Source: an uncultured Chloroflexia bacterium
GTDB taxonomy: Bacteria > Chloroflexota > Limnocylindria > Limnocylindrales > CSP1-4
DNA: 64,000 bases
NCBI GenBank assembly: GCA_963752475.1
Contig: CAVVYR010000001.1
Location: 32,001 to 96,000, forward strand
Reading direction: 5' to 3'
The notes under the pieces were generated by a model. The model saw only the letters and a program-made list of their open reading frames with translations. It searched no databases and had not been told where the DNA came from. Positions within the stretch are counted from its first letter, which is position 1; each line of letters starts with the position of its first letter. Shown here piece after piece: positions 9,002 to 63,391 of this stretch. A program made the translations under genes and the position numbers.

Positions 9002-9095
9002 GGCCGGGAGCCTAGCGCAGTTGCTACCGCGAGGTTGGCATCTGAGCCTTCCGGCCGTTGGCGCCAAGCGCGTCTTCGACGTCGAGGCTCGGAGG

Positions 9096-25335: not shown

Positions 25336-27278
25336 GTGGCGCTGTTCGGCTGCCTGACGGGATCGCTGCTGGCGATCGCTCCGCGCGTCGTGCTCATCGG
25401 TGCCTGGCTGGTCGCCGACCGCTGGCAGCAGGTCTGGGACGGGACGGTCCTAATCCCCCTCGTGGGCATCGTCTTCCTGCCCTACACCACCGTGATGTAC
25501 CTGTTCGTGTGGACGCCCCAGGCATCGCCGGCTACGCCTGGGTGTGGCTGGCACTGGGGCTCTTGCTCGATGTGGCCCACATGGGCTTCGTGGCCACGGA
25601 CGCTGGAGAGGGCCGCCGCGGCACGTCAGAGGCTTTGGACTGGCTGCGCCGCTCCACGCGTCGGACGATCGACGTCGTCCGCGGAACGCCGCTCCTGGTC
25701 TGGCTGATCTTCCTGCTGGCGCTGGTAGTGCGGCTCGTGGGCACGCCCTACGCCCTGCCTCAGCAGCTGGACCCGGACGACCGATCTTCGTCGACGGCGC
25801 GCTCCGCATGATGAGCAACGGCGACCTGGACCCGGACTGGTACGGCGCTCCGGCAAGCACGCTGATGACCGGCATGGCCGCGCTCTACGCCGCCTATGGC
25901 TTCGCCGGCATCCTGCTCGGGAACCTCGGCTCCATGGCCGACATCGTCCCCGCCTACCAGGCCGACGGTACCTACTTCCTGCTGTCCGGACGGATCTACA
26001 CGGCCATCGCCGCCACGGCCGTGGTCGTGGCCACCTACGCGGTCACGCGCGAACTGCGGGTGTCGCACTTCTGGTCGGGACTGGCCGCGCTGGTGATCGC
26101 GCTGTCGCCGCTGATGATCGGCTACTCCTGGCTGGTGCGCATGGACATGTTCCAGGTCCTCTTCATGCTGCTGGCACTGTTGATGGTGCTGCGCGCACTG
26201 CGGAAGCCGACCCTGACCGCGTTCGTGCTGGCCGGTGTCTTCGTCGGCCTGGGCGTTGCCAGCAAGTACCCGGCCGTCGTGGTCGCCATCCCGATCCTGG
26301 CTGCGGCCATCGTGCTCGCGGGTCAGGGTCGGCTTTCGATCCGGGCCTCGATCGGCTATCTCGTGAGCGCTGGTGTAGCGAGCCTCATCGCTGCCGCTGT
26401 CGTCGCGCCGTACCTGTTCATCGACTTCGAGGAAGTGTTGGCGCACGTCGAACGGGAGAACCGCAGTACGCACCTCGGACATACCGGCCAGGGCTTCTTC
26501 ACGGATCTGTGGGACTACCTGAACGTGGCGCTGCCGCAGGCGCTCAAGGGACCCGGCACCCTGCTCGGGATCATCGGCCTGGGCTCGATGCTCGCCTCGC
26601 GCCGTGGCTGGCTGTTGCCGCTGGCCTTCGCCATCTACCTGCTGTTCATCTCCTACCTCTCGCTGTGGTGGGTACGGTGGGCCTTGCCGCTGGTCCCGCT
26701 CGCGGCGATCGGCGCAGTCTTCCTCGCTCACCGACTGGAGCTCCGCCTCCGGCCGCGCCTGCCGGCGTTCGTGACGTACGGTGCGCGCATCGCCGTAGCC
26801 GCGCTACTGCTCGTCCCGGTCGCCATCCCCACAGCGGAGATGGTCTGGTCCCGCGCCACGACCGACGACGTCCGCGTCGAGGCCGCCAAGTGGATGGACG
26901 CGAACATCCCGGCCGGTAGCACGCTGGTCATCGAGTCGTATGTGCCACAGGTGCTCGCGGAGGAGTACGAGTGCTCTTCGCGCTCAATGGTGAGGTCATC
27001 CGCTGGCAGGAGTTCAGCGATCAGGTCCGGCCGGCCAGGTTCTTCGGCTCACTGGGCGATGGCTCGCGCGACATGACGCCCGAGGAGCTCATGGCCGAGT
27101 TCGAGGCACGGGACGTCGACTACGTGCTGCTGAGTTCGAGTTGATCGGTCGCTATGGCGCCGAGCGTGAGGACTACCCTGACGAGTGGGCCGTGTACGAG
27201 ACGCTGCTCGAGGAGTACCCCACGGTCAAGACCTTCCGCGACGGTGAGATCGTGGTCCTCGACGCCAAGCAGGAGTAG
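25336..27278 (+). CDS. GT39/ArnT-like (PMT family) polyprenyl-dependent glycosyltransferase (frameshifted)
   Basis: LDPD(E) loop, many TMs, LVRMD, GLGVASKYP and VRWALPLVP motifs. Confidence 0.8.
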
Positions 27279-28223: not shown

Positions 28224-28988
28224 TCACGGCAGCGCGCTGACCAGGCCGCCGTCGACGGGCACGATGGCACCGGTGACGTAGGAAGCGGCGGGCGAGAGCA
28301 GGAAGGCCGCCACGCGCCCGATCTCGGCGGTATCACCGTATCGGCCGAGCGGGATCGTCGCCTCCGCCTGGCGCTGGACCTCCTCGACCGCCGGCCGGTC
28401 GACTCCGCACGCGCGGCGTCGAGCTGCCGGACGCGGTCGGTGGCGAAGCGGCCGGGGGCCACGCCGTTGATGCGGATCGGGGCGATCTCGAAGCTCAGGT
28501 TCTTGATCAGGCCGGCCAGGCCGGGTCGCAGCACATTGCTGGTGGTGAGCCCGGGCAGGGCTGGCGGACCGACGAGCTGAGGTTGACGACGATGGCCGGG
28601 TCGCTCCCCTCGCGCAGGTGTGGCAGCGCGGCGCGGATGAGCCGCAGCGCGGAGTGCAGCGTGCCATCGATGGCGCGGGCCCATTCCTCCTCGCCGATGG
28701 CCTCGAAGGTGCCGGCGGGCGGGCCGCCGGAGTTGACCACGAGCAGGTCGAGTCCACCGAGCTGCTCGACGGCGGACGCGACCGCGCAGCCGGACCATCC
28801 GGCGTGGAGAGGTCGGCCACGACGGTGCCGGCACCCAGCTCGGCGGCGCGCGCGTCGAGCGTCTCCGCCGTGCGTCCGGCGAGGACCAGGCGGGCGCCCT
28901 CGGCCGCCAGCACGCCGGCGATCCCGGCGCCGATGCCACCTGCGCCGCCGCCCACCAGGGCGCGCCGTCCGCCTAGTCCCAGATCCAT
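28224..28988 (-). CDS. SDR-family oxidoreductase (frameshifted)
   Basis: MDLGL.GRRALVGGGAGGIG, NSGGPPAG, SNVLRPGLAGL and IPLGRYG...ASYVTG motifs. Confidence 0.88.
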   Translation of the reverse strand: MDLGLGGRRALVGGGAGGIGAGIAGVLAAEGARLVLAGRTAETLDARAAELGAGTVVADLSTPDGPAARSRPPSSSSVDSTCSWSTPAARPPAPSRPSARRNGPAPSMARCTPRCGSSAPRCHTCARGATRPSSSTSARRSASPARAHHQQCAATRPGRPDQEPELRDRPDPHQRRGPRPLRHRPRPAARRRACGVDRPAVEEVQRQAEATIPLGRYGDTAEIGRVAAFLLSPAASYVTGAIVPVDGGLVSALP

Positions 28989-35974: not shown

Positions 35975-36764
35975 TCATGCTGGCGCGCTCGTAGGACCAG
36001 CGGCCTGCTCGAGCCGGCTACGTGCGTGATCGTGGAGCATCGCGTCGAAGCGGTTGAGCTCGCGGATCCGCTCCCGGGCAGCGGGCTCGATGGTGTCGAG
36101 TGCGGGGCGCTTGGGATTGACGTTCTCACGCTGCACGGTCGGCAGCGTGGAGCCGATGACCTGCCCCAGCACGGCCGCGCTGCGATCCATCTGTTCGGTC
36201 ACGAGCAGCGCCGCGAAGTGCGCCTCGATGTTCATCAGGGCCTGGTCAAGCATGGTCTGGGTGATACCGCCGAAGGGCACACCGCGAACGCCGGCGATGT
36301 TGCGCACCATGAGATTGTCGACGGCGAGCTTGTCACCCTTGAATACCCACTCCTCGAGCGAGGCCCGGCTGAAGCGCATGCGCAGCCGCTCGCGGTGTCC
36401 CTTGCCTCCGAAACGGATGCCGGGCAGGTTGCGGTAGTGATAGAAGAGCGAGGCCACGCGATCGACGGGGTCGCGCACGACCGTGACGTAGCGCGACGGC
36501 CGCGGCACCCGGCGATGGACCCCGAACGTGAAGTGACCGGCGATGAGCGCGTAGCGACCGATCTGCTCGGACGTTAACGCCTGGAAGTCCGCGCGTGTCA
36601 TGGCGCCGTCGAGCTCGCCGGGGCCGTAGACAAGCCCGACCTGACGGTCGGCGTAGGCCTGCAAGAACGGCCGTTCGCAGCGACGTCCCGCCCGTCTTGG
36701 GCAGGTGCATGAAGAGCAGGACGTCGTCGCCGATGGAAGGTACCTGCGATGACCCTGGATTCAT
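35975..36764 (-). CDS. Sulfotransferase family 2 protein (frameshift near 36665)
   Basis: FMHLPKTGGTS (5'-PSB), RDPVDRVAS (3'-PB) and IRELNRFD motifs. Confidence 0.88.
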
Positions 36765-37618
36765 GAGCGGGCGGGCCACCAGCCGGTGCGGAACGACTCG
36801 GCTTCGGAGCGCTCGAGCATCGTCTCGTAGAGCTCGACATCGAGGCGGTTGAGCTCGCGGATGCGCTGGCGCAGCTCCGGATCGAGCTGGTCGACGCCGG
36901 GACGCTTGTCGTTCACGTTGGCCCGGACCTGGTTGGGGATGGCATAGCCCAAGCGCGTGCCCAGGCGGCGCAAGTCGCGGTTCATGTGCTCCGCGAAGAG
37001 GATCATCGCGAAGTGCGCGTCGATGTGCTCGATGGCCTCGGCCAGCATGTCGTCGGTAGTGGCGCCGTACTCGACAGCAGGCCGGCCGGAGATGGCCCGG
37101 ACCTGCTGGTTGTCCGCCTCGATCCGCTGGAGGCCAAAGACCCAGTCCTCGAGCGAGAGGTCCCGATCCTCGATCATCTGCCGCTCGCGGGCCGCGCGGC
37201 CCTCCTTGGCGGGTACGACCTGACGGTAGTGGTAGTAGTGCGACATCACCCGATCGACCGGGTCGCGCAGGACCGCCACGTACCGACACTCATGTGGAAC
37301 CAGGCGATGGGTGCCATACGAGAGGTGGCCCATCACGAATCGAAGCTGTGCCCGCCGCTCCTCCGGCAGGTTCTCGAACTCGCGCGGGTGCATCGAACCC
37401 TCGAGGCCGGGCGCATCGTAGAGATAGACGCGCTCGTCGGGCTCGTAGGCCTGGCCCATGGCCTGCCGCAGGGACGTCCCGGCCGTCTTGGGAATGTGCA
37501 GGAAGATGAGCGTCCAGTCGTGGCGCGGACGGAAAGCGACAAAAACCCGGTGTGCAGCGTCACGGACGCGGTCGGTCGATACCACACGTGCAGGATGCCA
37601 CTGATACCCATCTGCCAT
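36761..37618 (-). CDS. Sulfotransferase family 2 protein (start uncertain)
   Basis: FLHIPKTAGTS, LRDPVDRVMSHY and IRELNRLDVELY motifs. Confidence 0.88.
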   Translation of the reverse strand: MADGYQWHPARVVSTDRVRDAAHRVFVAFRPRHDWTLIFLHIPKTAGTSLRQAMGQAYEPDERVYLYDAPGLEGSMHPREFENLPEERRAQLRFVMGHLSYGTHRLVPHECRYVAVLRDPVDRVMSHYYHYRQVVPAKEGRAARERQMIEDRDLSLEDWVFGLQRIEADNQQVRAISGRPAVEYGATTDDMLAEAIEHIDAHFAMILFAEHMNRDLRRLGTRLGYAIPNQVRANVNDKRPGVDQLDPELRQRIRELNRLDVELYETMLERSEAESFRTGWWPARS

Positions 37619-37747
37619 CGGCCGTCTATCCTAGCGACTGATGCATCGACGAAGAGGGATGGGCGCGGAGCTGGATCTCCGCTTGTCTCCCGCGACTTCC
37701 AACACGAAGAACCGCCTCGGCGACCGCCCAGCATCTGGGGCGGCCGA

Positions 37748-38600
37748 GTGACGCAACGAACCGCAGATCAGCACATCGCGCAGATCGTCCCCGCCGAGAA
37801 GTGGCCGGTCCTCGGCTGGGGTGAACTCTGGCGCATGCGCCGCATCCTGTTCGTGCTCGCCCAGCGCATCCTCAAGGTGCGCTACCAGCATACGGCGTCT
37901 CGGCATCCTCTGGGTCGTGCTGCAGCCGCTCATCCTGGTGCTCATCGTCAGCGTCTTCATGGGCTTCGTCATCGGCCGCGGCATGCGGGGGATCTGCCCT
38001 TCGCGGTCTGGCTCTTCCCCGCCTGGGTCGCCTGGCGAACGTTCCAGAAGGTCGTCAACGAAGGGGGCGGCAGCGTCAATGCCAACGGCGCGCTGGTCCA
38101 GCGCATCTACCTGCCGCGAATCTTCTTCCCGATGGCCGTGTCTCTCGCCAGCCTCGTCGACCTGGTCTTCATGATGCTGGCGCAGCTGGCTCTGCAGGCA
38201 GCGTACGGCATCGTTCCCGGCAAGGGCATGCTGCTTGTCCCGGTCGCGGTCGTGATCATGTACATGGCCGCCCTCGGGTTCTCGTTCTTCTTCTCCTCGT
38301 CATCGCTGCAGTACCGCGACATGGACATCATCAAGCCGCTGCTCGTGCAGGCCTGGTTCTGGATGTCGCCGATCATCTACCCGGCGACGCAGATCCCCGA
38401 GGATGTCCGGACGTTCTACTGCCTGAACCCAATGGCGGTCGTCATCGAGTCCTTCCGCTACGGGCTTCACGAACTCGACGCCGCAACCGCCGACGGAAGC
38501 CTGGGTCCTCGGCTTCTCGACGGCCTTGATCGCGCTCATCGCCGGCTACTTCTACTTCCGGCGACATGAACCGCTGTTCGCGGACTTCCTGGGCGAATGA
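37748..38600 (+). CDS. wzm: Polysaccharide ABC exporter permease (frameshifted)
   Basis: LKVRY..LGILWVVLQPL, LVQRIYLPR, YRDM, WMSPIIYP, LNPM and FADFL motifs. Confidence 0.88.
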
Positions 38601-43531: not shown

Positions 43532-44275
43532 GTGAAGGGCGTCGTTCTCGCCGGCGGGACCGGTTCCCGTCTGCATCCGCTCACGCTGGTCACCAACAAG
43601 CACCTCTTGCCGGTGCACGACCGGCCCATGATCCACTTCCCGCTGCAGACGCTCGCGGGCATGGGCATCGACCAGGTCATGGTCATCCTCGGCGGCCGCA
43701 GCATCGGCGACATCGTGGAGCTGCTGTCGGACGGTCAGGACTTCGGGCTGGACCTCAGCTACCGCTACCAGCGCGGCTCACTGGGCATCGCCCACGCCAT
43801 CGGTCTGGTCCGTGAGTTCGTGGGCGATGAGGCCTTCTGCGTCGTCCTCGGCGACAACATCCTGCGCGGTGATGACCTCGCCGACGTCGCGGCCGAGTTC
43901 GAGAACGGACCCTGGGGCGCCGGCACCCTGCTCTACAAGGTGGATGACGCCAAGCGCTTCGGCGTGGCCGAGTTCGACGACGAGGGCAACGTCATCGGCT
44001 TCGAGGAGAAGCCCGAGGAGCCCAAGAGCGACTCCATCCCCATCGGCGTCTACTTCCTGCGGCCCGATGCCTTCGAGGTCATCGAGCAGCTCACGCCCAG
44101 CGGTCGCGGCGAGTTCGAGATCACCGACGTGCTCAACCACTACGTCGGCGACGGCGGGCTCTTCGCGCGCCACTACGAGGGTCGCTGGCACGACGCGGGC
44201 ACCATCGAGTCACTGCTGGAAGCGGCCACGATGGCCGCGAACGAAGACGAGCCTCAGCCGTCCTCAGGAAGCTGA
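43532..44275 (+). CDS. rmlA: Glucose-1-phosphate thymidylyltransferase
   Basis: KGVVLAGGTGSRLHPLT...NKHLLPV, LGDN, EEKP, SGRGEFEITD and WHDAGT motifs. Confidence 0.92.
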   Translation: MKGVVLAGGTGSRLHPLTLVTNKHLLPVHDRPMIHFPLQTLAGMGIDQVMVILGGRSIGDIVELLSDGQDFGLDLSYRYQRGSLGIAHAIGLVREFVGDEAFCVVLGDNILRGDDLADVAAEFENGPWGAGTLLYKVDDAKRFGVAEFDDEGNVIGFEEKPEEPKSDSIPIGVYFLRPDAFEVIEQLTPSGRGEFEITDVLNHYVGDGGLFARHYEGRWHDAGTIESLLEAATMAANEDEPQPSSGS

Positions 44276-46302
44276 TAGAGGACCCGCAGCTCCACGTCCT
44301 CGGTCAGGTCGGTCTCGTAGCGCAGTCGGTCGCCGTCGACGGTCATGCCCTCGGTGGACTCGACGACGGTCGCACCGTCGGGCAGGTCGATGCGCACCGA
44401 TAGCGGCACTGCGCGCGCGCCGGGCTGCTTCTGGACCACCAGGCTGTACTCCCAGCCGTCATCGGTCTCGACGGCCACCTCAGGCACGGACCAGAAGTAG
44501 CTCAGGCTGGACTCACCCGGCTCCATCAGCAGGTTGTTGGCGAAGGCCGTCCGGCCGGCCTCGTCCGTGATGCGATCCGCGTCAAAGACCTCGCTGGAGG
44601 CGGTCTCGCCGCTGGCCGTGACCAGCTCGCTGCCCTCTGGCACGAGCGTGCGGATGTAGCCGCCGTACCAGCCGATCTCGCTCTCGGAGAACGAGCGGAT
44701 AGCCTCGAACTCCTCACCCTCCCTGAGGGCGTCGTTCTGCCAGTCGAGACGCACGCTGTTGACGGCGTTGCCCTCCGAATCGAGCTTCACCACCAGCGAA
44801 TCGGAGCGGTCGATGACGAGGTTGTACTTCGACGTCGGGGCCACGTTCGACTCGACCACGTAGAGGTAGTCACCCGGATCGGTCCGGACCTCGCCCGCCC
44901 AGCCGTTCTCGAGCACCAGCTCCTGGGCCTCGGGGTCGGCCAGCCAGACGAGGGCCTGGCGCTCCGCGCCGATGTCCTCGAGCGCCTCGATCATCGCGCC
45001 CCACTGGTCCGGCGGCAGCGACAGCAAGCGCTGCATCAGCGTACGCGCCAGGGCATCGAGCACGTCCTTGCGGCCCTCCAGATCCCCGGGTGCGCCACGG
45101 GTCGCACCGAGCAGCGTGAGCGTCACGTCGCCCGGTTCAACGGTCACGTCGTAGGCCGGCACCTCGACCGCCCCCACCACCTCCAGCAGCCGGTCGATGG
45201 CATAGGTGGTGATGGCGATGACGCCGTCGACCTCGGTGCCGTCGGCTTCGATGGCGTAGAACTCGGCTGACTTCTCCGCGCCGGTGGGGAAGTCAGGCGA
45301 CCAGGCCGCATCGGCCAGGCGCCAGGACTGCGGATTGCCCTCGGCATCGGCCGCCAGCAGGATCTCGGTCAGCTCCTCGGGCGGCTCGACGAAGGGCAGG
45401 TCCTTCTGCAGGTCCAGGTCGTAGACGTTGATGAACTCCTGGCTCGTCAAGCTGCCGTCCTCGACGGTGATCAGACCGACCGTGCCGGCGTAGCCACCCG
45501 CAGGACGCAGCTCGGCAGGGTTCTGAGCCAGGACGAGGTACCGCTTCTGTCCGCCCCAGCCCATGAGCTCGGGCGCGATGTCGTCGATCTCGCGGTACTG
45601 CTCGAGCAGCGGCAGGTAGGTGTCCAGCGGCTCGGCCACCAGGTCACGCGCCTCGAGGATCTGCTCGGCCGCGTCGTCGGGGATGGCCGCGAGGTCCTGT
45701 TGGGCGTCGGCGATGAGCTGGTCGATGCGATCGACATCGGCGGACGACGTGGCGATGAACTCGACAAGACCGGCGGTCAGCTCGAAGTCTGGATCGGCCT
45801 CGTTCTGCTCGCGCAGGGTGACGACCTCATCGACGAGACCGAGGCCGATGTCTCCGACCTCGACGAGCGACTCCGCGGCGGCCACGAGCGAAGTCGCCGC
45901 GTCGTACTGCGCCGCGACTGCGCCCACGCTGCCGACGAGCTTGACGAGCGGATCGTCGATGGCCTCGGAGATGGGCTCAAGGTGGCCCGCGAGCACGGCG
46001 AACTCGGCGCTGAGCTCGTCGAGCGTGGCCCGCTCGAGATTCGCCGGCTCCAGCCCTTCCACGTCGTCCGAGAGCCGCTGCGCTGAAGCACGCAGCTCCC
46101 GAACGTCGTCCTGCAGCGGCAGGTAGCGACCGGCGGTCGCGACCACGAGCGCCACCACGATAGCCACGATGAAGGCCAGGAAGACGGCCACCATGAGGCG
46201 ACCGACCCTGGGCTCAGCATCCTCCGTAGGCGCTACCGGAGGCGGTGGAGCCGGAGGTGGCGGTGCTGCTGGTGGCGGTGGTGGCGGGTAGTAGTCCGTC
46301 AC
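44254..46302 (-). CDS. DUF4012-domain membrane-anchored protein
   Basis: N-terminal TM, helical stalk, YLVLAQNPAELRPAGG, SPDFP, VDGVIAI and QKQPG motifs. Confidence 0.88.
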   Translation of the reverse strand: MTDYYPPPPPPAAPPPPAPPPPVAPTEDAEPRVGRLMVAVFLAFIVAIVVALVVATAGRYLPLQDDVRELRASAQRLSDDVEGLEPANLERATLDELSAEFAVLAGHLEPISEAIDDPLVKLVGSVGAVAAQYDAATSLVAAAESLVEVGDIGLGLVDEVVTLREQNEADPDFELTAGLVEFIATSSADVDRIDQLIADAQQDLAAIPDDAAEQILEARDLVAEPLDTYLPLLEQYREIDDIAPELMGWGGQKRYLVLAQNPAELRPAGGYAGTVGLITVEDGSLTSQEFINVYDLDLQKDLPFVEPPEELTEILLAADAEGNPQSWRLADAAWSPDFPTGAEKSAEFYAIEADGTEVDGVIAITTYAIDRLLEVVGAVEVPAYDVTVEPGDVTLTLLGATRGAPGDLEGRKDVLDALARTLMQRLLSLPPDQWGAMIEALEDIGAERQALVWLADPEAQELVLENGWAGEVRTDPGDYLYVVESNVAPTSKYNLVIDRSDSLVVKLDSEGNAVNSVRLDWQNDALREGEEFEAIRSFSESEIGWYGGYIRTLVPEGSELVTASGETASSEVFDADRITDEAGRTAFANNLLMEPGESSLSYFWSVPEVAVETDDGWEYSLVVQKQPGARAVPLSVRIDLPDGATVVESTEGMTVDGDRLRYETDLTEDVELRVLYQLPEDG

Positions 46303-46309
46303 CCGAGGC

Positions 46310-47209
46310 TCACGCCGATGGGATGCGCTCCGCGATCACCACGAAGCGCGGGGAGGTCTCCGCGTAGTCCAGGCACGTCTGCAACGTGAGGATCTCGCGA
46401 TCGGTGCCATCGAGATACTCGAAGGCGTCGTATTCGACGAGGGGGTGGATCTCCGAGACCTCGTACTCGGCGATGCTGCCGTCAGCCATATCGACCTCGA
46501 CGAGGTCGCCGGTGCGGACGTTCCAGAGCTCGAGCAGAACACCCTCGCGGGCATGCCCGTAGACATAGGTGTTGGAACCTTCCCCGGGCCAGGCCGTGTC
46601 CGGGAAGTGTGCGACGGCATCGTCAGGCGCATCCCAGCCATTGCCCTCGACGATCGGCAGGTCGATGCCCAGCCGGCGCATGCGCAAGTGTGTCGCCGGC
46701 GGAGCCAGCAGCATGTCGGCTGCGGGCGGCGGCTCGATCGGGCTCTCGCGGAACGCGCTCGGCGCTTGCTCCACGTAGCCTTCCGGTGGCAGGATCGAGG
46801 TCTTGGCCAGGCCGCCTTGGCAACGGATGTTGATGACCGGTGTGGAGTTGGGGAGGCGGACGGAGACGCGACGCTGTCCGGCCTTGTTCCCGAAGTGGAA
46901 GATGGAAGCGACGTAGCCGTTTCCCTTCTGGCTCCTGCGCTTGGACGCCAGGAACTTGTCGCCTGGATGCTGCCTCTCGACAAGGAGGAACTTGACCGGC
47001 TGGCCGGCGACGGGCCGCCCGGTCTTCACATCCTTGACGTAGGCCTCGATCTTCAGGTTCTGATCGCATCGGACCACGCGTGGGGTCTGGATGAAGACAC
47101 GCGTGGTCGGCTGTCCGATGTAGCCAAGCGCCGGCAGCGCCGCGGTGATGACCAGGGCGCTGCTGATGAGCAGGCTGAACAGGAACGTGGGGTACTTCAG
47201 GCGGCGCAT
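46310..47209 (-). CDS. Sortase with an extra N-terminal basic Ig-like domain
   Basis: Signal peptide; PGEGSN.YVYGHA (His), LTLQTC (Cys) and RFVV (Arg) catalytic triad. Confidence 0.9.
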   Translation of the reverse strand: MRRLKYPTFLFSLLISSALVITAALPALGYIGQPTTRVFIQTPRVVRCDQNLKIEAYVKDVKTGRPVAGQPVKFLLVERQHPGDKFLASKRRSQKGNGYVASIFHFGNKAGQRRVSVRLPNSTPVINIRCQGGLAKTSILPPEGYVEQAPSAFRESPIEPPPAADMLLAPPATHLRMRRLGIDLPIVEGNGWDAPDDAVAHFPDTAWPGEGSNTYVYGHAREGVLLELWNVRTGDLVEVDMADGSIAEYEVSEIHPLVEYDAFEYLDGTDREILTLQTCLDYAETSPRFVVIAERIPSA

Positions 47210-48694
47210 CTACTCGGTCTCCTCCGCGTCGGCCACGCTGGCACTCGCAGTGTCGGTCGCCGGCGCGCTGGGGATCCCCCACCACGTCCGGGCTCGTTCG
47301 AGGGCATCGCCGACGATCAACCCTTCCAGGTCCTCGGCTTCCTCCCCTGTCGCTTCGGTGATGTAGTCGGTGAACTCCGTCCAGCCGCTCGCGGGGTCGT
47401 AGGCCCCGAAGCCGCCGTCGAAGGGCGCGAAGGCCTCCGCCTCGCCATCCTCCTGGAAGTCCTTCATGGCTCGCATGTAGGCAGTCAGGAACGAGGTGAC
47501 GGTGGAGCCCTCGGTCTCGAGGAAGTCATCCGACACAGCGAGGACGTCACCGCCGAACTCGCCGTCCGTGCCGTAGTTGCGGTGGGCCGCGATGACCGCC
47601 AGGGGCAGGCCCTGGGCGAAGCCGTCAGCGGCGTCGGCCGCATCGATGGCAGCGATGTCGATGTCACCCTGGAGCAGGCCCAGCAGCGGCTCCTCGACCG
47701 CCTTGAGGTTCACCTCATCGAGGCCGGCGGACTCGAAGTACTCCTCCCGCAGCGCGGTCTGCACGGGGCCACCGGCGAGTGCCTTCGGCGGCGAGGCCAC
47801 CGTGATCGCGCTGGAGGCCGGTCGGCCGGCGAGGTCGCTGGTGGGGTTGAGCTTGGTGCTGGTCGAGGCCTGAGCCACGTTGAGCGTGTGCTCGGAGACG
47901 AAGGCCTCGATATCCGGGAACTCGTCGAGCTCAGCGAAGGCGTAGGCCGAGAGCTCGCCCCAGCCGCCATCATCCTTGCGGCGACCGAAGCCGCCGTCGA
48001 GCGGCTTGAAGGCGTCGGCGTCATCGGCCTTCTTGCTGAACTTGCGCAGGCCACGGAGGTACGACTTGGTGAAGGCGCTGACGGTCGAGGGCTCGGCGGC
48101 TACGAGGCCGGGAGCTGCCATCAGCAGAGAGCCGCCGAAGGCACCGTCCTCGCCGGCGTAGTTCTCGTACCCGGCCACTGCCTGGAGCGAGGGGTCGTCG
48201 GCGAAGGCCTCGAGGGCCTCGATGGTGTCGACGACCGCGAAGTCAGCCTCGCCAGACTGCAGAGCGTCGAGCGGCGAGTCGACAGCGACGAGCTCGACCG
48301 AGTCGAAGCCGGCGTCCTCGAAGAAGTCGTTGGAGATAGCCCGCTGCAGCGGAGCGGGTCGGTCGTCGCTGCCCAGCGCCACGATGAGCTCGCTGGTGAG
48401 GGGAGCGAGGGCCGCTTTGGCCGGTGCCGCCTGCACGAGCGTGATGGGCTCGGGCGTGGGCTCGGGCGTGGCCGCGGGCCTGGCGATGTTCGAGCCGGTG
48501 TCCTTCTTCGTATCGCTATTCTTCTTCTTGTTGTTGTTCTTCTTGGTGTTGCCGCCAGTCTTGGGCGTCTTCGGCGCTGGTGTGTCGTACGTCGGCGAGG
48601 CGCTCTCGTCGGCCACACCCGGATCGATGGCCGCGGCGACCGGGATGGGCACCACGAGGGCAGCCGCGAGCGCGACAGCCGCGAAGGGACGCAT
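47210..48694 (-). CDS. Secreted protein with two tandem SsuA/NMT1-like single-lobe repeats
   Basis: Signal peptide; two alignable repeats, each with FF/YF.AG.D.V.L, LQ.G..D.A, STV..F...Y.R and DGGFG. Confidence 0.75.
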   Translation of the reverse strand: MRPFAAVALAAALVVPIPVAAAIDPGVADESASPTYDTPAPKTPKTGGNTKKNNNKKKNSDTKKDTGSNIARPAATPEPTPEPITLVQAAPAKAALAPLTSELIVALGSDDRPAPLQRAISNDFFEDAGFDSVELVAVDSPLDALQSGEADFAVVDTIEALEAFADDPSLQAVAGYENYAGEDGAFGGSLLMAAPGLVAAEPSTVSAFTKSYLRGLRKFSKKADDADAFKPLDGGFGRRKDDGGWGELSAYAFAELDEFPDIEAFVSEHTLNVAQASTSTKLNPTSDLAGRPASSAITVASPPKALAGGPVQTALREEYFESAGLDEVNLKAVEEPLLGLLQGDIDIAAIDAADAADGFAQGLPLAVIAAHRNYGTDGEFGGDVLAVSDDFLETEGSTVTSFLTAYMRAMKDFQEDGEAEAFAPFDGGFGAYDPASGWTEFTDYITEATGEEAEDLEGLIVGDALERARTWWGIPSAPATDTASASVADAEETE

Positions 48695-48699
48695 GCGCC

Positions 48700-50097
48700 T
48701 CAATGCCCGGGCCGCCGGATAAGCGCCGGGATGGTGCGCAGCACGATCTCCAGATCCAGCCAGAACGACCAGCGGTCGATGTAGGCCAGATCGAGCTCGG
48801 CGCGCTGATCGAAGTCTTCGTCCAGCCGGGAGCTCACCTGCCAGAGGCCGGTGATGCCCGGCTTCATCGAAAGACGGCGCTTGTGCCATATGTCGTACTC
48901 CTGGACTTCACGGGGCGGTGCAGGTCTGGGGCCCACGATGCTCATCTCCCCCCGCACGACGTTCACGAACTGGGGCAGTTCATCGAGACTATAGCGGCGC
49001 ATCAAACGACCCGCCGGTGTGACCCTTGGGTCGTCGATGAGCTTGAACGCCGCGCCTGAGGTATCGGACAGCGCCTCGACCTCCCCGAAGCGCTCCTCAG
49101 CGTCGGCATACATCGTGCGGAACTTGAAGATGGTGAAGGGCCGGCCGTGGAGGCCGATGCGCGTCTGGCGGAAGATGACGCCGGGGCCCTGACTCGCTCG
49201 CAGCGCCACCCACAGGATCGCCAGAAGCGGAGACAGCAGCACCAGCGCGGCGATCGACGCGCCCAGGTCGAAGACACGCTTGGCGACGTGGCCGACGAGC
49301 TCATCGGGGCCGCTGGCATACGAGATGACCGCGGTGCCATCCAGCTCCTCGAGCGAGCGGTCGGCCGAGAGCAGCCGCGGCACCACCACCGGCACGCGGA
49401 TGAGCTTGCCCTGCTCGTGCGCCATCTGCGCGAGCGGCTCGACGGACTTCCACTGGTCCTCGCCGACGCAGATGGCGACCTCGTCCACGACGCGATCGGA
49501 CAGGACGGCAGGCAGGTCGATGAGCTGGCCCCAATACATGCCCGAGGGCACGCCCTGCGGAGGCTCGTCACCGAGGTAGCCCGCGACCTGGACTCCGAGG
49601 ACGCTGTGCTCATGGATCACCTGCGCGAAGTCCGTGGCCTCGTGTCCGGTGCCGAGGATGAGCACGCTGCGCACGTTGTAGCCACGGCGCCGCACGAACA
49701 TGAACGACGAACGCACGATCGCGCGGAGGATCACCGCCAGCACACCCTGGAGCGGGAAGAGCAACAACACCCAGCCCGAGTCGGCGCGATCGGTGGCCGC
49801 CATCAGGAGCGTGGCCGTACCGAGCACGGCCAGCCAGACCGTGGCGCGTACGACGGTGCGGGTCTCACCCGCCAGCGTCCAGTGCGCACGCAACCGATAG
49901 GCACCGTTCACATAGAGCAGCGCGACCCAGGCGATGCCGTAGACCACAGCCCGTGCCCAGAAGGTGTCGAGGAATGGGTCGAGAGGAGTTTCCGGGTGGG
50001 CAAAGGCTCGATAGACCGACAGACTCAGCGCGATGGCGAGGACACCGTCGGCCAGCATCAGGACGGCGCGAAGCGCACCCCCGTGTCGGCGGATCAT
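48700..50097 (-). CDS. Priming polyprenyl-phosphate sugar phosphotransferase (WcaJ/WbaP family)
   Basis: N-terminal TMs; KRVFD, FKFRTM, DDPRVT..GR..R.SLDELPQ, GEMSIVGPRP and KPGITGLWQV motifs. Confidence 0.95.
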   Translation of the reverse strand: MIRRHGGALRAVLMLADGVLAIALSLSVYRAFAHPETPLDPFLDTFWARAVVYGIAWVALLYVNGAYRLRAHWTLAGETRTVVRATVWLAVLGTATLLMAATDRADSGWVLLLFPLQGVLAVILRAIVRSSFMFVRRRGYNVRSVLILGTGHEATDFAQVIHEHSVLGVQVAGYLGDEPPQGVPSGMYWGQLIDLPAVLSDRVVDEVAICVGEDQWKSVEPLAQMAHEQGKLIRVPVVVPRLLSADRSLEELDGTAVISYASGPDELVGHVAKRVFDLGASIAALVLLSPLLAILWVALRASQGPGVIFRQTRIGLHGRPFTIFKFRTMYADAEERFGEVEALSDTSGAAFKLIDDPRVTPAGRLMRRYSLDELPQFVNVVRGEMSIVGPRPAPPREVQEYDIWHKRRLSMKPGITGLWQVSSRLDEDFDQRAELDLAYIDRWSFWLDLEIVLRTIPALIRRPGH

Positions 50098-50330: not shown

Positions 50331-50399
50331 GCGGGACGTCCGGGACGATGGGATGCCGAACCAGGCGCCGTGACCATCGCCAACTCAGGGAGGAATGCC

Positions 50400-51428
50400 T
50401 TGCGCCGTTCAATCACGATCATCTCGCTCCTGGTGGCGATAGCGGTCTTGTTCACTGCCATGCCCGCCACAGCTCGGAGCAAGATCGCGCTGGGTATCTC
50501 GAACCCCAACGCAGACTACGTCGGTGTGGTCGAGAACCACAAGGCTCGATACGGTGTCTACCCAGCCATGTTCTCGCTCTGGAGCAGCTGGGGCAGCCGG
50601 GGCCAGGGCACGAACAAGCCCGCTCCGGTCGCTGGTGCGGCGTGCACCCCGGACAAGGGCACCTGCTACTTCCCTCGTGAAGCGGTCGACTACCTGATGG
50701 ACCGGAACATCACGCCGATCGTCTGGTGGCAGTTCACCAACCCCGAGTTCCCGAGCCAGGGGGCGTTCAGCCGCTACAGGATCATCACCAACGGCACGCA
50801 TGACGCCTACATCCGCAAGTGGGCCGCGGAGCTCAAGGCCGCGTCCAAGCGTCACAAGGGCCGCCCCATCGGTGTCCGCCCCTTCCACGAGGCCACCGGT
50901 ACCTGGTTCCCGTGGTCCATCGGCCGCTTCGACAACACCGTGCAGAAGTACAAGGCGGCATGGCGTCATCTGCACACGCAGTTCCAGAAGGTCGGTGCCC
51001 GCAAGCACGCACGCTTCATCTGGAGCAACTACACGCCGCGCAAGGGCTCGTACCCCGGCGACAAGGTCATCAACTACGTCGGCTTCACGGTGCTGAACTT
51101 CGGCTCGCAGAAGAAGTGGCGCTCGATGACCTCGATCGTCAACAACTTCGTGAAGCGGACCAAGCAGTTCAGCAAGCGGCCCATCCTTATCACCGAGGTC
51201 GCCTCCCATTTCAGGGGCGGCAATAAGGCCAAGTGGCTCAAGGGCGGCTATCTGAAGGCCTACAACAAGCACCCCCGGATCAAGGGCATCCTCTATCTCG
51301 ACACCAACGTCCCGCAGAGGGGACAGCGGCACCCCGACTGGCGGTTGGTCCAGCCCAAGAACGGCTCCGCGGTGAACGCCTATCGGCAGCTCGTGAACAA
51401 CCCCAGGTTCAAGGGCAAGCTGCGGTAG
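50400..51428 (+). CDS. Secreted GH26-family glycoside hydrolase, paralog 1
   Basis: Signal peptide; G.HDAYI..WA, RPFHEATG.WFPW (acid/base E), YPGD..INYVG and ITE (nucleophile E). Confidence 0.88.
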   Translation: MRRSITIISLLVAIAVLFTAMPATARSKIALGISNPNADYVGVVENHKARYGVYPAMFSLWSSWGSRGQGTNKPAPVAGAACTPDKGTCYFPREAVDYLMDRNITPIVWWQFTNPEFPSQGAFSRYRIITNGTHDAYIRKWAAELKAASKRHKGRPIGVRPFHEATGTWFPWSIGRFDNTVQKYKAAWRHLHTQFQKVGARKHARFIWSNYTPRKGSYPGDKVINYVGFTVLNFGSQKKWRSMTSIVNNFVKRTKQFSKRPILITEVASHFRGGNKAKWLKGGYLKAYNKHPRIKGILYLDTNVPQRGQRHPDWRLVQPKNGSAVNAYRQLVNNPRFKGKLR

Positions 51429-52099: not shown

Positions 52100-52963
52100 G
52101 TGATCGACCCGACCCTCCCCGGGATCTTCATCAGTGGCGACAAGGGCCGTCTGGGCCGAGCGCTGCGCACGGCCGCGCCAGGACCGATCGACGGCTGGGA
52201 CATGCCCGAGCTGGATCTCGACGATCCCTCGACCTGCGCCGCGCTGGTCCGCGAGAGGCAGCCGCGGTTGGTGATCCACACCGCCGCCATGACCGCGGTC
52301 GACCAGGCCGCGCTCGAGCCCGACGTCGCGCTACGTCGCAACGGCCAAGCCGTGGGCGCCCTGGCCGGGGCCTGTCGAGAGATCGAGGCTGGCCTGCTGC
52401 TGGTCTCCACCAACGAGGTCTTCAGCGGCGACCGCACCGACGGTCGTCCCTACCTCGAGGATGATGAGACCGGTCCCATCAACTCCTACGGCGCCAGCAA
52501 GCACGCCGGCGAACTGGCGGCGCTCGAGGCGTTCGATGGTGCCGATGGGCTCTGGATCGCCCGCACCGCCTGGCTCTTCGGGCCACCGGGCAACGACTTC
52601 CCGGACAAGATCACCGCGGCTGCCGACAAGGTCGAAGGCCCGCTTCCGGTCGTCACCGATGAGGTCGGCTGTCCCACCTACGCACCCGACCTCGCGCGCG
52701 CCATCTTCGAGCTCGTGGAGCGCACCGACGGTGGCGTCTTCCACCTCGTGAACTCCGGCTATGCCTCACGCTACGACTGGGCCCAGGCCGTGCTCGCCAT
52801 CCGCCGACCCGGGCGGCAGATGCGCCCCATCGGCAGGGGCGAGTTCGAGCGCAGCTCCGAGCCCCCGCCGTGGGGGGTGCTGGACACCTCGAAGGCGGCC
52901 GCGGCCGGCGTCGAGCTGCGGCCGTGGCAGGACGCCCTGGAGGAGTACCTCCGTGAAGCGTAG
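52100..52963 (+). CDS. rmlD: dTDP-4-dehydrorhamnose reductase
   Basis: G.KGRLG, HTAAMTAVD, YGASK, RTAWLFG, GCPTY and WQDAL motifs. Confidence 0.92.
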   Translation: MIDPTLPGIFISGDKGRLGRALRTAAPGPIDGWDMPELDLDDPSTCAALVRERQPRLVIHTAAMTAVDQAALEPDVALRRNGQAVGALAGACREIEAGLLLVSTNEVFSGDRTDGRPYLEDDETGPINSYGASKHAGELAALEAFDGADGLWIARTAWLFGPPGNDFPDKITAAADKVEGPLPVVTDEVGCPTYAPDLARAIFELVERTDGGVFHLVNSGYASRYDWAQAVLAIRRPGRQMRPIGRGEFERSSEPPPWGVLDTSKAAAAGVELRPWQDALEEYLREA

Positions 52964-53972
52964 GACGCTGTTCATCCCCCTCCTCGTCATCGCCGCGCTG
53001 CTCATCTCGACCCTGCCGGTGGCGGCGCGTGGGCAGATCGCCATCGGCGTCTCCGATCCGCGCGGCTCGAACCTCACGGTGCTGCAGGACCACATGAAGC
53101 TGATGGGTGGCCAGAAGCCGGGGCTGTGGTCGCTTTGGAGCAACTGGGGCAGTCGGGGCGGCAGGTTCTCGTGCGTGCGTGGCCACGGCAACTGCGCCTT
53201 CCCGCTGGAGATGTCGCGGGAGCTGCTGAAGCGGGGCATCACGCCCGTCATCTGGTGGCAGCCGGTGAACCCGGCGCGCGCATCGAGCCCCAAGTTCTCG
53301 AGCTACAAGCGGATCATCCATCACAAGCACGACGCGTACATCCGGGCCTGGGCGCGCGACCTCAAGCGGGCCTCGCGGGCCAATGGCGGCCGACCCATCG
53401 TGGTTCGCTTCGCGCACGAGGCCACGGGCCACTGGTTCCCGTGGTCGATCGGCAAGCACGGCAACACGATCAAGAACTACAAGAAGGCCTGGCGCCACAT
53501 CGACCGCATCTTCCGGCAGGTCGGGGCCCGCAAGCACACCCGCTTCCTGTGGAGCAACTTCCTGCCCAAGCCCAAGGCGTACCCCGGTCACAAGGTCGTC
53601 GACTACGTCGGCGCCACGATCATGAACTACGGCAACTCCGGCGTGGAGGGCAAGCACAAGTGGACGAGCCTGCCCAAGCGGGTGAAGCGCGTGAACGCGC
53701 TGGCCCGGGAGTTCACCAGGAAGCCGCTCTTCCTCGTCGAGGTCGGGTCCAACCATCGCGGTGGCAGCAAGGCCAACTGGATCAGGAGTGGCTACCACAA
53801 GGTCTGGCGGAAGTACCCCAGGGTCAAGGCCATCATGTACCTCGACTCCGACCAACCGCACGAGAACGTGTCGCACCCCGACTGGCGCCTGGTGAAGCCG
53901 TGGGACGGCTCTGCTGTGCGGGCGTACCGGCAGGTCGCCAACTCGTGGAGGTTCAGGGGCCGCCTCAAGTAG
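52953..53972 (+). CDS. Secreted GH26-family glycoside hydrolase, paralog 2
   Basis: Signal peptide; RFAHEATGHWFPW, YPG..VVDYVG and LVEVGS motifs. Confidence 0.88.
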   Translation: MKRRTLFIPLLVIAALLISTLPVAARGQIAIGVSDPRGSNLTVLQDHMKLMGGQKPGLWSLWSNWGSRGGRFSCVRGHGNCAFPLEMSRELLKRGITPVIWWQPVNPARASSPKFSSYKRIIHHKHDAYIRAWARDLKRASRANGGRPIVVRFAHEATGHWFPWSIGKHGNTIKNYKKAWRHIDRIFRQVGARKHTRFLWSNFLPKPKAYPGHKVVDYVGATIMNYGNSGVEGKHKWTSLPKRVKRVNALAREFTRKPLFLVEVGSNHRGGSKANWIRSGYHKVWRKYPRVKAIMYLDSDQPHENVSHPDWRLVKPWDGSAVRAYRQVANSWRFRGRLK

Positions 53973-61338: not shown

Positions 61339-62274
61339 CTAGCCCTTCACGCCACTGGCCGCGATCGATTCGACGAACGTGCGCTGGATCGCCAGGAACA
61401 GGATCAGGACGGGGATGGTGATGAGCGTGAGGTAGGCCATGAGCTCACCCCAGGGCGTGTTCATCTGGAAGAAGAACGAGACGCCCACCATCACCGGTCT
61501 GGAAGCCTCGGTCTGGGTCACCATCAGCGGCCACAGGTATGAGTTCCAGATGGGCAGGAACGTGAGGATCGCCACCGTCGCGGTGACCGGCCCAGAGAGG
61601 GGCATGATGATCCGCCGGTAGATGGTGAAGAAGCCCGCGCCATCGATGCGCGCAGCCTCGTCAAGCTCCACGGGTAGCGACTTGAAGAACTGCACGAACA
61701 GGAAGATCGAGAAGGCATTGGCCATGAACGGCAAGATCTGCACCTGGTACGTGTCCAGCCAGCCCGTCTCGAGAACGGGCATTCCGCCTTCGAATGCCAG
61801 CGTCGGCAGCCGGCTGACCATGAACAGCAGCGGGATGGCGATGGTCTCGAAGGGCACGATGAGGGTGGCGATGATGATGGTCAGGGCCAGCCCGCGCCCG
61901 CGCCAGTTCATGCGCGCGATGGCGAAGCCGGCCATGCTGTTGATGATGATGCCGAAGGTCACCGTCACCGCGGACACGAGGATGGAGTTGAAGAGGAAGC
62001 GGGCTGCCGGCACCCGCTCGAAGACACCCTCGTAGTTCTCGAGCGAGATGTCGCCCACGGGCAGGAAGGCGCGGATGGAGTTCGTGTCGGACAGCAGCTG
62101 CAGGTCCGGCTTCAGCGAAGACACGAACATGTAGACGACCGGGAAGAGGAACAGGAAGGCCAGGAAGATCATGGCGGCATAGCGACCGACCAGGTTCCAG
62201 TCGGGGCCGGAGCGCCCGGTGTTCGAGTCAGACCCGCTGGGCGGGGTCGGGGCCGTCGTCTCATTCATGGCCAT
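61339..62274 (-). CDS. Carbohydrate ABC transporter permease
   Basis: ELDEAARIDGA (EAA loop) and WNSYLWPL; TM helices. Confidence 0.95.
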   Translation of the reverse strand: MAMNETTAPTPPSGSDSNTGRSGPDWNLVGRYAAMIFLAFLFLFPVVYMFVSSLKPDLQLLSDTNSIRAFLPVGDISLENYEGVFERVPAARFLFNSILVSAVTVTFGIIINSMAGFAIARMNWRGRGLALTIIIATLIVPFETIAIPLLFMVSRLPTLAFEGGMPVLETGWLDTYQVQILPFMANAFSIFLFVQFFKSLPVELDEAARIDGAGFFTIYRRIIMPLSGPVTATVAILTFLPIWNSYLWPLMVTQTEASRPVMVGVSFFFQMNTPWGELMAYLTLITIPVLILFLAIQRTFVESIAASGVKG

Positions 62275-62275
62275 A

Positions 62276-63391
62276 TCAGCTCTCCCGGGTAAGCCAGCGC
62301 TGGACGAGCGAGACGACCAGCACGAGTGCGAAGAAGACGACAGCGATCGTCGAGCCGTAGGCGATGTCCTGGCGCTCGAATCCACGCTGCACCGCCTGGA
62401 AGATCACCGTCTGGGTGGCATCCAACGGGCCGCCCTGCGTCATCACATCGATCTGCGTGAAGAGCGCAAAGGCCTGGATGGTGATGACGATGAAGACGAA
62501 TACGGCGGTGTTGCGCAGGCCCGGCCAGGTCACGTTGCGGAACTGCCCCCAACGGCCGGCGCCATCGATCTGCGCGGCCTCGTAGAGCACGAACGGGATG
62601 GTCTGCAGCCCCGCCAGCCAGATGATCATGTGGAAGCCGACGCCCTGCCACACGGACATGATCATGACCGCGGGCAACGCCGACCCCTGCTCGCCGAGCC
62701 AGTCGAGCGCGGGCCAGGCGCCGAGCGTGAAGATCCCGAGCACCTGGTTGATCAACCCGTCGCTGGCATACAGCAGCGACCACAGGATCGACACCACGAC
62801 CATCGAGATGATGACCGGGATGAAGTAGGCGCTGCGGAAGATGTTCACTCCGCGGATGCGCTTGTTGATGATGAGTGCAAGGAGCAGACCGAGCCCACCC
62901 TGGGCGGGCACGATGAAGAGCGCGAAGACGAAGGTGTTGATGAGCGCCGTCAGGAACGTCGCATCACCCGCCAGCAGGACCAGCTTGTCATCGCCGATGT
63001 CGAAGGAGCGCCACTCCTGGAGGCCGTCGTACTGCGGGTAGTCGGGGTTGTCACGCGTGTAGAAGCGGGTGCGCTCGTAGGTGAAGTTGCCATCCTCATC
63101 GAGGATGGGCAGGCCGCTCTCGTCGACCAACGGCTCCAGGGTCAGGATCTGGACGGTGAGCAGCCGCTCGTAGTTGTCCGTGCCCACGAACTCGGTGGGA
63201 TTCGGTGACAACAGCCGCTGATTGGTGAACGAGAGGACGAAGGCCAGGATGAATGGGGCGATGAGGAACATCGCCAGCAGGAACATGGCCGGCCCGGCCA
63301 TGAACCAGGCCCAGCGCCCTTCGCCGCCATAGGCGACGCGTTCGCTCCTGGATCCCTTCGGCGCGGGGCCCGGTTTCGTCGTGGCCGTCAT
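62276..63391 (-). CDS. Carbohydrate ABC transporter permease
   Basis: LYEAAQIDGA, FVG.DNY and MTQGGP motifs. Confidence 0.95.
   Translation of the reverse strand: MTATTKPGPAPKGSRSERVAYGGEGRWAWFMAGPAMFLLAMFLIAPFILAFVLSFTNQRLLSPNPTEFVGTDNYERLLTVQILTLEPLVDESGLPILDEDGNFTYERTRFYTRDNPDYPQYDGLQEWRSFDIGDDKLVLLAGDATFLTALINTFVFALFIVPAQGGLGLLLALIINKRIRGVNIFRSAYFIPVIISMVVVSILWSLLYASDGLINQVLGIFTLGAWPALDWLGEQGSALPAVMIMSVWQGVGFHMIIWLAGLQTIPFVLYEAAQIDGAGRWGQFRNVTWPGLRNTAVFVFIVITIQAFALFTQIDVMTQGGPLDATQTVIFQAVQRGFERQDIAYGSTIAVVFFALVLVVSLVQRWLTRES

Follow-up and report, generated by a model that had tools for sequence, protein, structure and literature searches.

A gene of an uncultured Chloroflexia bacterium encodes a protein that, in our view with little doubt, consists of two one-lobed units in tandem, each descended from an NMT1-type substrate-binding protein (SBP) that has lost its lobe II. 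The gene lies on the minus strand at positions 47210..48694 of a 64,000-nucleotide stretch of contig CAVVYR010000001.1 (assembly GCA_963752475.1, contig positions 32,001 to 96,000), which we call the window. SBPs are textbook two-lobed hinge proteins, and how they arose from an ancestor with one lobe is a question under active study in protein evolution. Sequence comparisons place the protein in a small, Chloroflexota-restricted clade that appears to descend from the SBPs of NitT/TauT-type importers (NMT1/NrtA-like, type II fold). Its most likely role, which we put forward tentatively, is that of a non-transport, surface-displayed binding or scaffold protein of envelope assembly. To the full explanation, origin and mechanism together, we give a probability of about 0.6.

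The gene and the layout of its product

The longest open frame around the gene runs from 47210 to 48889 on the minus strand. We took the ATG at 48694 as the start because it gives a product of 494 aa (plus stop) whose N terminus can be aligned with those of 36 homologs, and because it lies 5 nt past the upstream TGA; the sequence GAGG precedes it. The open reading frame (ORF), the homologous N termini and the upstream stop thus agree with the coordinates given in the original prediction, which had been made from the DNA sequence alone.

The product opens with a putative export signal (residues 1 to ~23; 48626..48694, minus strand), read by eye as a hydrophobic core followed by A-A-A and common to the aligned homologs, so that the protein is probably exported and its signal peptide presumably cleaved. 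It contains no cysteine, hence no lipobox, and is not a lipoprotein. A basic linker rich in P, T, K and N follows (residues ~24-99; 48398..48625, minus strand). It opens with 'DTPAP', has an isoelectric point (pI) of 9.35, with P or T at 22 of its 77 residues, and is predicted to be disordered; the AlphaFold confidence score (pLDDT) is mostly below 65 over residues 1-90. The 'D-T-P-A-P' motif (residues 37-41; window ~48572-48586, minus strand) is near-invariant, T38, P39 and P41 being present in at least 90% of 37 sequences, and in some homologs it stands directly after the A-L-A end of the signal peptide. The motif may mark a site of glycosylation or processing.

The remainder of the chain is made up of the two units. 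Unit 1 (residues 100-290; 47825..48397, minus strand) comprises lobe I and a C-terminal helical extension with a 'PLDGGFG' loop, and is matched by a unit hidden Markov model (HMM) over residues 100-285. Unit 2 (residues 291-480; 47255..47824, minus strand) has the same composition with a 'PFDGGFG' loop, as delimited by AlphaFold, Foldseek and BLASTP against the full-length relative P0070. The C terminus, '...WWGIPSAPATDTASASVADAEETE', is short and acidic and has no hydrophobic segment.

Both units appear to have lost lobe II at the same place

The repeats quoted in the original prediction sit at residues ~116-237 and ~311-430. When the two halves were compared with BLASTP, 50 of 123 positions were identical (41%, E 2e-24), far past chance, which bears out the claim of two alignable repeats. 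Across the 44 family members in which both half units are complete, the identity between the trimmed units of one protein is only 32-48% (median 39%), which indicates that the duplication is old and that the copies have not been homogenized.

A short hairpin occupies the site of the missing lobe in each unit: AGYENY-AGEDGA-FGGSLL... in unit 1 (residues 174-193; 48116..48175, minus strand) and AAHRNY-GTDGE-FGGDVL... in unit 2 (residues 369-388; 47531..47590, minus strand). Unit 1 thus has 6 residues, and unit 2 has 5, between the conserved 'AGYxNY' strand and the '(Y/F)GG(D/S)' strand; in the AlphaFold model strands beta4 and beta5 are separated by 11 and 5 residues, respectively. Counted by pattern, half units have 3-6 residues here (mostly 4-6), compared with 99 aa in the full-length relative P0089, and P0070 carries 96 aa (residues 146-241) at the hairpin site. 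The same is seen in the alignment of full and half forms (A2), in which the full forms have ~100 residues between 'AGYxNY' and 'YG(S/G)D' where 'AGEDGA' or 'GTDGE' stands in the window units. When an HMM was built from the short unit, its match broke at HMM position ~85 in all 10 of the 10 mapped full units, the flanking pieces lying 75-93 aa apart. Likewise, unit 2 aligns with P0070 in two blocks (q1-86 with s59-145, 38% identity, E 2e-15; q89-166 with s242-353, E 1e-10), skipping 96 aa. Judged by these alignments, the missing stretch is the middle of the NMT1 model, that is, lobe II, ~85-100 aa in comparison with full-length relatives, which have 84-99 additional residues at the hairpin site. 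The original prediction had proposed that a turn of only ~12 residues replaces lobe II in both repeats and that lobe I was kept and duplicated. The spacers and alignments agree with the first proposal, and the second, with lobe II cut out of each unit at the crossover hairpin, is backed by the alignments, by the five-stranded AlphaFold units and by Foldseek.

A further deletion of ~20-30 aa precedes the 'PFDGGFG' loop; it is family-wide in unit 2 and is found in unit 1 of 9 of the 44 members, the window protein included. In unit 1 of P0052 and in P0074, the site of the lost lobe holds a low-complexity insert rich in P, S and A, 38 aa or longer, and not a tight hairpin.

The predicted structure

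The full-length AlphaFold model, built on an alignment of 37 sequences, has a mean pLDDT of 83.9 and a predicted TM score (pTM) of 0.77, with most of residues 100-478 above 90. Each unit forms five strands and then helices; in unit 1 the strands are E102-108, 132-138, 152-156, 172-177 and 189-193. Unit 2 modeled alone reached a pLDDT of 91.2 and a pTM of 0.89. Neither unit has the two alpha/beta lobes with two hinge crossovers of an SBP, each being a single five-stranded lobe.

When unit 2 alone (189 aa) was searched against the PDB with Foldseek, Thi5, ThiY, TauA, 3qsl, NrtA and CmpA were all matched with probability 1.00. The TM score normalized on the query (TMq) was 0.59-0.67 for most matches and 0.64-0.67 for ThiY, NrtA and CmpA; for ThiY (3ix1) it was 0.64, with a root-mean-square deviation (rmsd) of 4.3 A. 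Foldseek spreads the unit over ~300-366 columns, leaving roughly 110-130 or more target columns unmatched. Such a span for a 189-aa query implies that lobe II is gapped out, as expected for lobe I plus the C-terminal helices. The check proposed with the original prediction, AlphaFold followed by Foldseek, therefore returned one five-stranded lobe per unit, with kin among the type II periplasmic binding proteins, and not ordinary two-lobed SBP domains.

The whole model retrieves the same families with poor superposition (TMq 0.15; TM score normalized on the target, TMt, 0.21-0.25; rmsd ~22 A), which means that units 1 and 2 do not mimic the two lobes of an SBP. The suggestion that two like lobes might make a cleft in the manner of an SBP was accordingly not supported. 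About 380 of the 494 residues are ordered, and for one rigid body of that size a pTM of 0.77 comes close to the ceiling; the model thus suggests that the units pack in a fixed way as a single body, arranged otherwise than the lobes of an SBP.

Family assignment

Pfam assigns the protein to NMT1/THI5-like (40.4 bits; cut-off 20.5) and to no other family. The NCBIfam model SsuA_fam scores 12.5 bits, with a cut-off of 163.5, so the protein is not SsuA proper. Profile matches in the PDB include CmpA (8.9e-5) and 3qsl (1.6e-4).

The family is small. We found 46 homologs, named 'ABC-type nitrate/sulfonate/bicarbonate transport system substrate-binding protein' by their sources, and only 52 representatives among 1.84 billion proteins. 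Family identity is 34-70%, and 27 columns are invariant across 37 aligned sequences. A search of the ESM Atlas returned ordinary NMT1/TauA-type clusters and one cluster with a 187-aa representative (scores 0.91-0.93).

Relatives form a series of architectures

The relatives differ in the number and kind of their units. P0070 (372 aa) and P0089 (361 aa) are full-length proteins that match the NMT1 profile end to end (positions 5-214 and 4-208), and P0080 consists of two full units. P0054, P0067, P0068 and P0078 have a full unit followed by a short one, the last three also with an N-terminal Big_1 immunoglobulin-like (Ig) domain, and P0072, P0074, P0077 and P0085 apparently have one half unit. 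These mixed-architecture proteins, from P0054 to P0085, share with the window protein a common clade and motifs and differ from it in their domain counts; to judge by them, the one-lobed unit is a reusable module within the clade. The motifs 'AGYxNY', 'YG(S/G)D', 'PFDGGFG' and 'LN.AQ...NP' are common to P0070, P0089, the window protein and two genes of a related locus described below. Both these motifs and the similarity over whole units place the window protein in the clade that has the C-terminal extension 'PFDGGFG ... LN.AQ ... NP'.

A scan of species-representative genomes yielded six loci (L001-L006), all in Chloroflexota metagenome-assembled genomes, in which synteny could be read directly. 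L001-L005 are of the half type. L006 (4984-11798) is a complete NitT/TauT-type importer operon, with an NtrCD/TauB-like ATPase and two TauC/SsuC-like permeases; it also holds two tandem full-length SBPs of the clade, followed by an amidohydrolase and a gene of the metallo-beta-lactamase fold. The presence of importer genes beside these SBPs indicates that the full-length members are ordinary importer SBPs. The solute of the L006 importer is perhaps a nitrogen heterocycle.

An IQ-TREE phylogeny of 47 units, rooted on L006a, places the transporter-type units at the base and gathers all short units, together with the full units of the mixed proteins, in one clade (98 by the Shimodaira-Hasegawa-like approximate likelihood ratio test, SH-aLRT). 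Within the window family the units 1 and the units 2 each form a clade (97 and 98 SH-aLRT), which implies that the tandem form was kept throughout the radiation of the family. The free tree needs two changes between the full and short states, and an approximately unbiased (AU) test did not reject a single clade of all 39 half units (p 0.546). This result is compatible with lobe II having been lost once, ahead of the duplication, and the identical deletion boundaries of the two units would fit such a loss. The reading that lobe II was lost at least twice was given up in the light of the same test.

A conserved operon within an envelope polysaccharide cluster

The gene is the second of four on the minus strand, separated by gaps of 5, 0 and 7 nt. 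Upstream is a polyprenyl glycosylphosphotransferase, a priming sugar transferase (48700..50097; Pfam Bac_transf 4e-65; TIGR03025 363 bits, cut-off 295.55). Downstream are a sortase with an N-terminal Big_1-like Ig domain (46310..47209; Pfam Sortase 1.6e-21), whose start abuts the stop of the SBP-like gene, and, as the last gene, a DUF4012 membrane or extracellular protein (44254..46302; Pfam DUF4012 3e-29). This order is kept in all five half-type loci: L001, L004 and L005 have all four genes, L002 has three up to the contig end, and the contig of L003 begins inside the SBP-like gene; DUF4012 is syntenic in L001, L003, L004 and L005. The run-through ORFs P0059, P0048 and P0061 have the same neighbors. 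In addition, 18 of the 46 homologs agree with a sortase homolog in the length of the longest contig, which is an indirect sign, and one pair has the adjacent locus tags 00530 and 00540.

Most of the 125 sortase homologs have the layout Big_1 plus Sortase. The catalytic residues H219 and R288 are invariant among 45 sequences, and C279 is present in at least 90% of them; in the Ig domain (residues ~30-135) the cysteines C48 and C130 are both invariant. None of the class-specific cut-offs of NCBIfam is reached by the sortase. Its Ig domain is homologous to the Big_1 domains that head P0067 and P0068 (E 2e-6 and 6e-5), and P0078 is headed by Big_1 as well. An Ig domain shared between the sortase and relatives of the SBP-like protein may hint at a common setting and is no proof of contact.

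DUF4012 has no relative in the PDB by sequence (best E 0.73). The family has been noted in Gram-positives and Chloroflexi (PMC6744442), and a published table places a DUF4012 gene beside the priming transferase in a Bifidobacterium longum exopolysaccharide locus (PMC5412050).

The operon is surrounded by an envelope polysaccharide cluster of the rhamnose type, with RmlA-like, RmlC and RmlD genes, several glycosyltransferases of families GT2, GT4 and GT61, and three GH26-like genes. The wider cluster also has a weak Gal-3-O-sulfotransferase-like match (35975-36664, minus strand; E 4.5e-7), a KpsM-like ABC-2 permease (36986-38569, plus strand), an FkbM methyltransferase (23905-25041, plus strand) and a PMT_2 glycosyltransferase (25544-27076, plus strand), genes that suggest that a wall or capsule polysaccharide is modified and is exported through an ATP-binding cassette (ABC) system. 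No LytR-CpsA-Psr-type gene was found among the window ORFs scanned, which were part of the total.

Importer permeases occur in the window at 61339-63391 alone, and these resemble UgpA/E and MalF/G, of the sugar type. When the TauC-like permeases of L006 were used as queries, no match was found in the window or in L001-L005. A NitT/TauT permease and ATPase thus accompany the clade SBPs in L006, and such a permease is missing from the 64-kb window and from L001-L005, in agreement with the statement in the original prediction that no cognate importer is adjacent. Its idea of repurposing for the envelope gains support from the same absence and from the conserved operon of priming transferase, sortase and DUF4012.

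Sorting signals

The SBP-like protein has no cell-wall sorting signal: the combination of an LPXTG-like motif, a hydrophobic stretch and a basic tail was not found in it. A scan of the whole window for sorting motifs gave two matches, neither of them in a credible gene. Three candidates were considered and rejected. The C-terminal 'LPANPT' of the family is followed by short, acidic, variable tails, and the same end closes unit 1 and the SBPs of L006 and P0070; since it is found inside the chain at the end of unit 1 and in transporter-linked SBPs, the 'L-x-x-N-P' end is a feature of the fold and no sorting signal. The C-terminal 'Y-x-L-P' of the DUF4012 protein belongs to the last strand, with only 0-3 residues beyond it, and the LPKTG-like 'TPKTGG' of the linker is not conserved in homologs.

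A model for the origin and role of the protein

In all likelihood an internal deletion at the two hinge crossovers took out the whole of lobe II and left a beta-hairpin. Lobe I became a contiguous five-stranded alpha/beta domain, still followed by the C-terminal helical extension of the family with its 'F-x-P-F-D-G-G-F-G' loop and 'L-N-x-A-Q ... N-P' end, and this one-lobed unit stands twice in tandem. Without a second lobe the protein could neither close on a solute nor dock to an importer. Displayed at the surface on its P/T/K-rich linker, which may span the wall, it would serve the assembly or anchoring of envelope polymers as a static module for binding or scaffolding, together with the sortase and DUF4012, and might use the conserved hinge-side residues of the old pocket for binding. 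That AGYxNY, YGGD and PFDGGFG are still conserved points to half of the old pocket possibly being in use. We also consider, as a speculation that is more likely wrong than right by a wide measure, that the one-lobed unit is a new extracellular recognition module which, with the Ig-sortase and DUF4012, forms an undescribed machine in which the tandem lobes serve as the adaptor for the sortase to dock on or ligate. If true, this machine of monoderm Chloroflexota would couple the start of wall polysaccharide synthesis, at the priming transferase, to the covalent anchoring or patterning of polymer or surface proteins.

Several observations weigh against the explanation that we favor. Synteny with the sortase is no demonstration of joint action and, as the protein has neither a sorting signal nor a lipobox, cleavage of the signal peptide would leave it with no visible anchor to the cell. 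The structural evidence for one-lobed units is wholly predicted. At L003 and L004 several of the operon genes give split, frame-shifted matches, which reflect assembly error or decay. Unit 1 alone scores 20.3 bits against the NMT1 model, marginally below the cut-off of 20.5. Finally, Pfam places unit 2 (residues 306-416) on positions 98-212 of the 216 of the model, which is the lobe-II half, while it places unit 1 on positions 6-67, the lobe-I half (E 5.5e-4).

Alternative explanations

Taken at face value, the placement of unit 2 would mean that each unit kept lobe II and the return segment and that the N-terminal lobe was lost. We consider this very improbable. Unit 1, 41% identical to unit 2, falls at the start of the model; the half-type relatives match positions 5-69 and, separately, 174-208 or 210-247; and unit 2 itself corresponds to residues 59-145 of P0070 (38%), a stretch placed at the model start. 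Moreover, in sequence matches from the PDB the first part of unit 1 is aligned with residues 7-75 of CmpA and with 27-88 of 3qsl, and the Foldseek alignments cover the whole length of the targets. Because the units are homologous to each other and map clearly on full-length relatives, we read the Pfam placement as a slip between similar lobes. Just as improbable is that the protein is still a transport SBP, serving a NitT/TauT importer encoded elsewhere in the genome, even though it scores above the Pfam cut-off, its homologs carry transporter names and orphan SBPs exist. Lobe II, to which an SBP of this fold owes half of its pocket and one of its two docking surfaces, is absent from both units; no NitT/TauT permease was found in the flanks of L001-L005 or in the 64-kb window, which is all of this genome that was seen; and the conserved neighbors are envelope genes. 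Least credible of all is a decaying remnant without function. Two successive deletions (lobe II, then 20-30 aa more, missing from unit 2 and, in the window subclade, from unit 1 as well) and the frame-shifted neighbors at some related loci could be taken for decay, but the frame is intact, the family has retained its identity and invariant columns, the predicted fold is confident, the operon is tight, and the tandem form has been retained, as seen in the two well-supported unit clades.

Two other possibilities concern what the protein does at the surface, and we judge both unlikely. According to the first, it serves the sortase as substrate or covalent partner: a coat- or adhesin-like protein that the sortase would link, by a non-classical signal or by its new N terminus, to DUF4012, another protein or the wall. 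Dedicated sortases often adjoin their own substrates, and here the order is kept in five of five loci and the catalytic residues of the sortase are conserved. The homologs also have a conserved 'W-W-G-L-P-A-N-P-T' near the C terminus, with 'DTPAP' just past the signal peptide, and both proteins carry a stalk, either an Ig domain or a P-rich linker, behind an N-terminal hydrophobic segment. Set against this are the lack of an LPXTG-type signal, the short, acidic and variable tails, the fact that 'L-x-x-N-P' also closes unit 1, the L006 SBPs and P0070, the fact that the window protein itself reads 'IPSAPA' at the motif, and the outcome of the window-wide scan. Still less probable, in our opinion, is that the protein is an acidic component of the surface, either a matrix or a cation-binding protein (for Ca2+ or Mg2+, for example, in an S-layer-like coat), for which the old ligand pocket is irrelevant. 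Units 1 and 2 have net charges of -22 and -27, the 494-aa protein -50 (pI 4.1), the family core a median of -52 and the DUF4012 neighbor -91. This acidity is not proteome-wide, since the three GH26-like ORFs of the cluster (50370-51428, 52761-53972 and 54070/54386-55111, plus strand) encode very basic proteins (net +43, +56 and +25; pI 10.9-11.8), which may have an anionic polymer as substrate. The transporter-linked relatives are acidic as well, however (P0070 -28, P0080 -67), so that the acidity is perhaps partly inherited; the strongest conservation is on the hinge-side and loop motifs AGYxNY, YGGD and PFDGGFG and not on acidic patches, and no metal-binding motif was identified. The acidity of the units also argues against the anion-binding protein considered in the original prediction, makes direct binding of sulfated or other anionic glycans less likely, and leaves room for a cation-dependent or protein-protein role within the binding or scaffold function that we prefer.

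Comparison with known proteins

The protein resembles the NMT1/THI5-like SBPs (SsuA, TauA, ThiY, NrtA/CmpA; PF09084, PF13379) in its sequence family, lobe I fold, C-terminal helices and putative export signal. It differs from them in the absence of lobe II, and hence of Venus-flytrap closure, in its tandem units and long P/T/K-rich linker, and in its genomic context, with no importer nearby and an operon of sugar transferase, sortase and DUF4012.

One-domain SBPs are already known. As described, RmSBP of Rhodothermus marinus has one alpha/beta domain and no importer encoded alongside; it keeps the C-terminal domain of an amino-acid-type SBP, the N-terminal one being gone, and is a single short protein encoded near a chemotaxis-receptor gene (PMC10805632). 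Both it and the window protein are one-domain SBP derivatives without an importer, the domain being present twice per chain in the latter. The window protein, in contrast, keeps lobe I by internal excision, has it duplicated and lies in a context of envelope biosynthesis. None of the 13 PDB sequence matches or of the Foldseek matches listed was a Rhodothermus entry. Engineered halves of ribose-binding protein offer a second comparison. In that study (Michel, Romero-Romero and Hocker 2023, PMC10601554), an isolated lobe folds alone and is framed as an ancestral model, and the halves come together again in the two-lobed form of the parent. These halves are laboratory constructs of type I, whereas the window protein is natural, with a type II lobe that is derived and not ancestral, and its two copies are predicted to pack in a way that does not match a two-lobed SBP.

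A search of an open-access library, within the terms used, found no description of an NMT1-type one-lobed tandem protein or of the four-gene operon. New here are an internal excision with lobe I retained, architectures with tandem and mixed units, the restriction to Chloroflexota and the operon with sortase and DUF4012. The relatives offer a natural reduction series (full, full plus full, full plus half, half plus half, perhaps a single half) in which the remainder is folded, by prediction, as well as conserved and reused. Such units are a natural test of what a single lobe can do, and material for structural and design work. The four-gene operon is conserved in a phylum whose envelope biogenesis is poorly known. 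The annotation of the family, whose members are now labeled as nitrate/sulfonate/bicarbonate transporter components, can be corrected.

Other features of the window

Two ORFs elsewhere in the window give partial family matches. The one at 17172-18146 (plus strand) matches the galactokinase signature alone, and the one at 28224-28988 (minus strand) matches a short-chain dehydrogenase at both ends only. These ORFs, like the split genes of L003 and L004, reflect either frameshifts from assembly or real decay. At 6653-9067 (minus strand) lies an 804-aa ORF with type I phosphodiesterase and prokaryotic phospholipase A2 domains.

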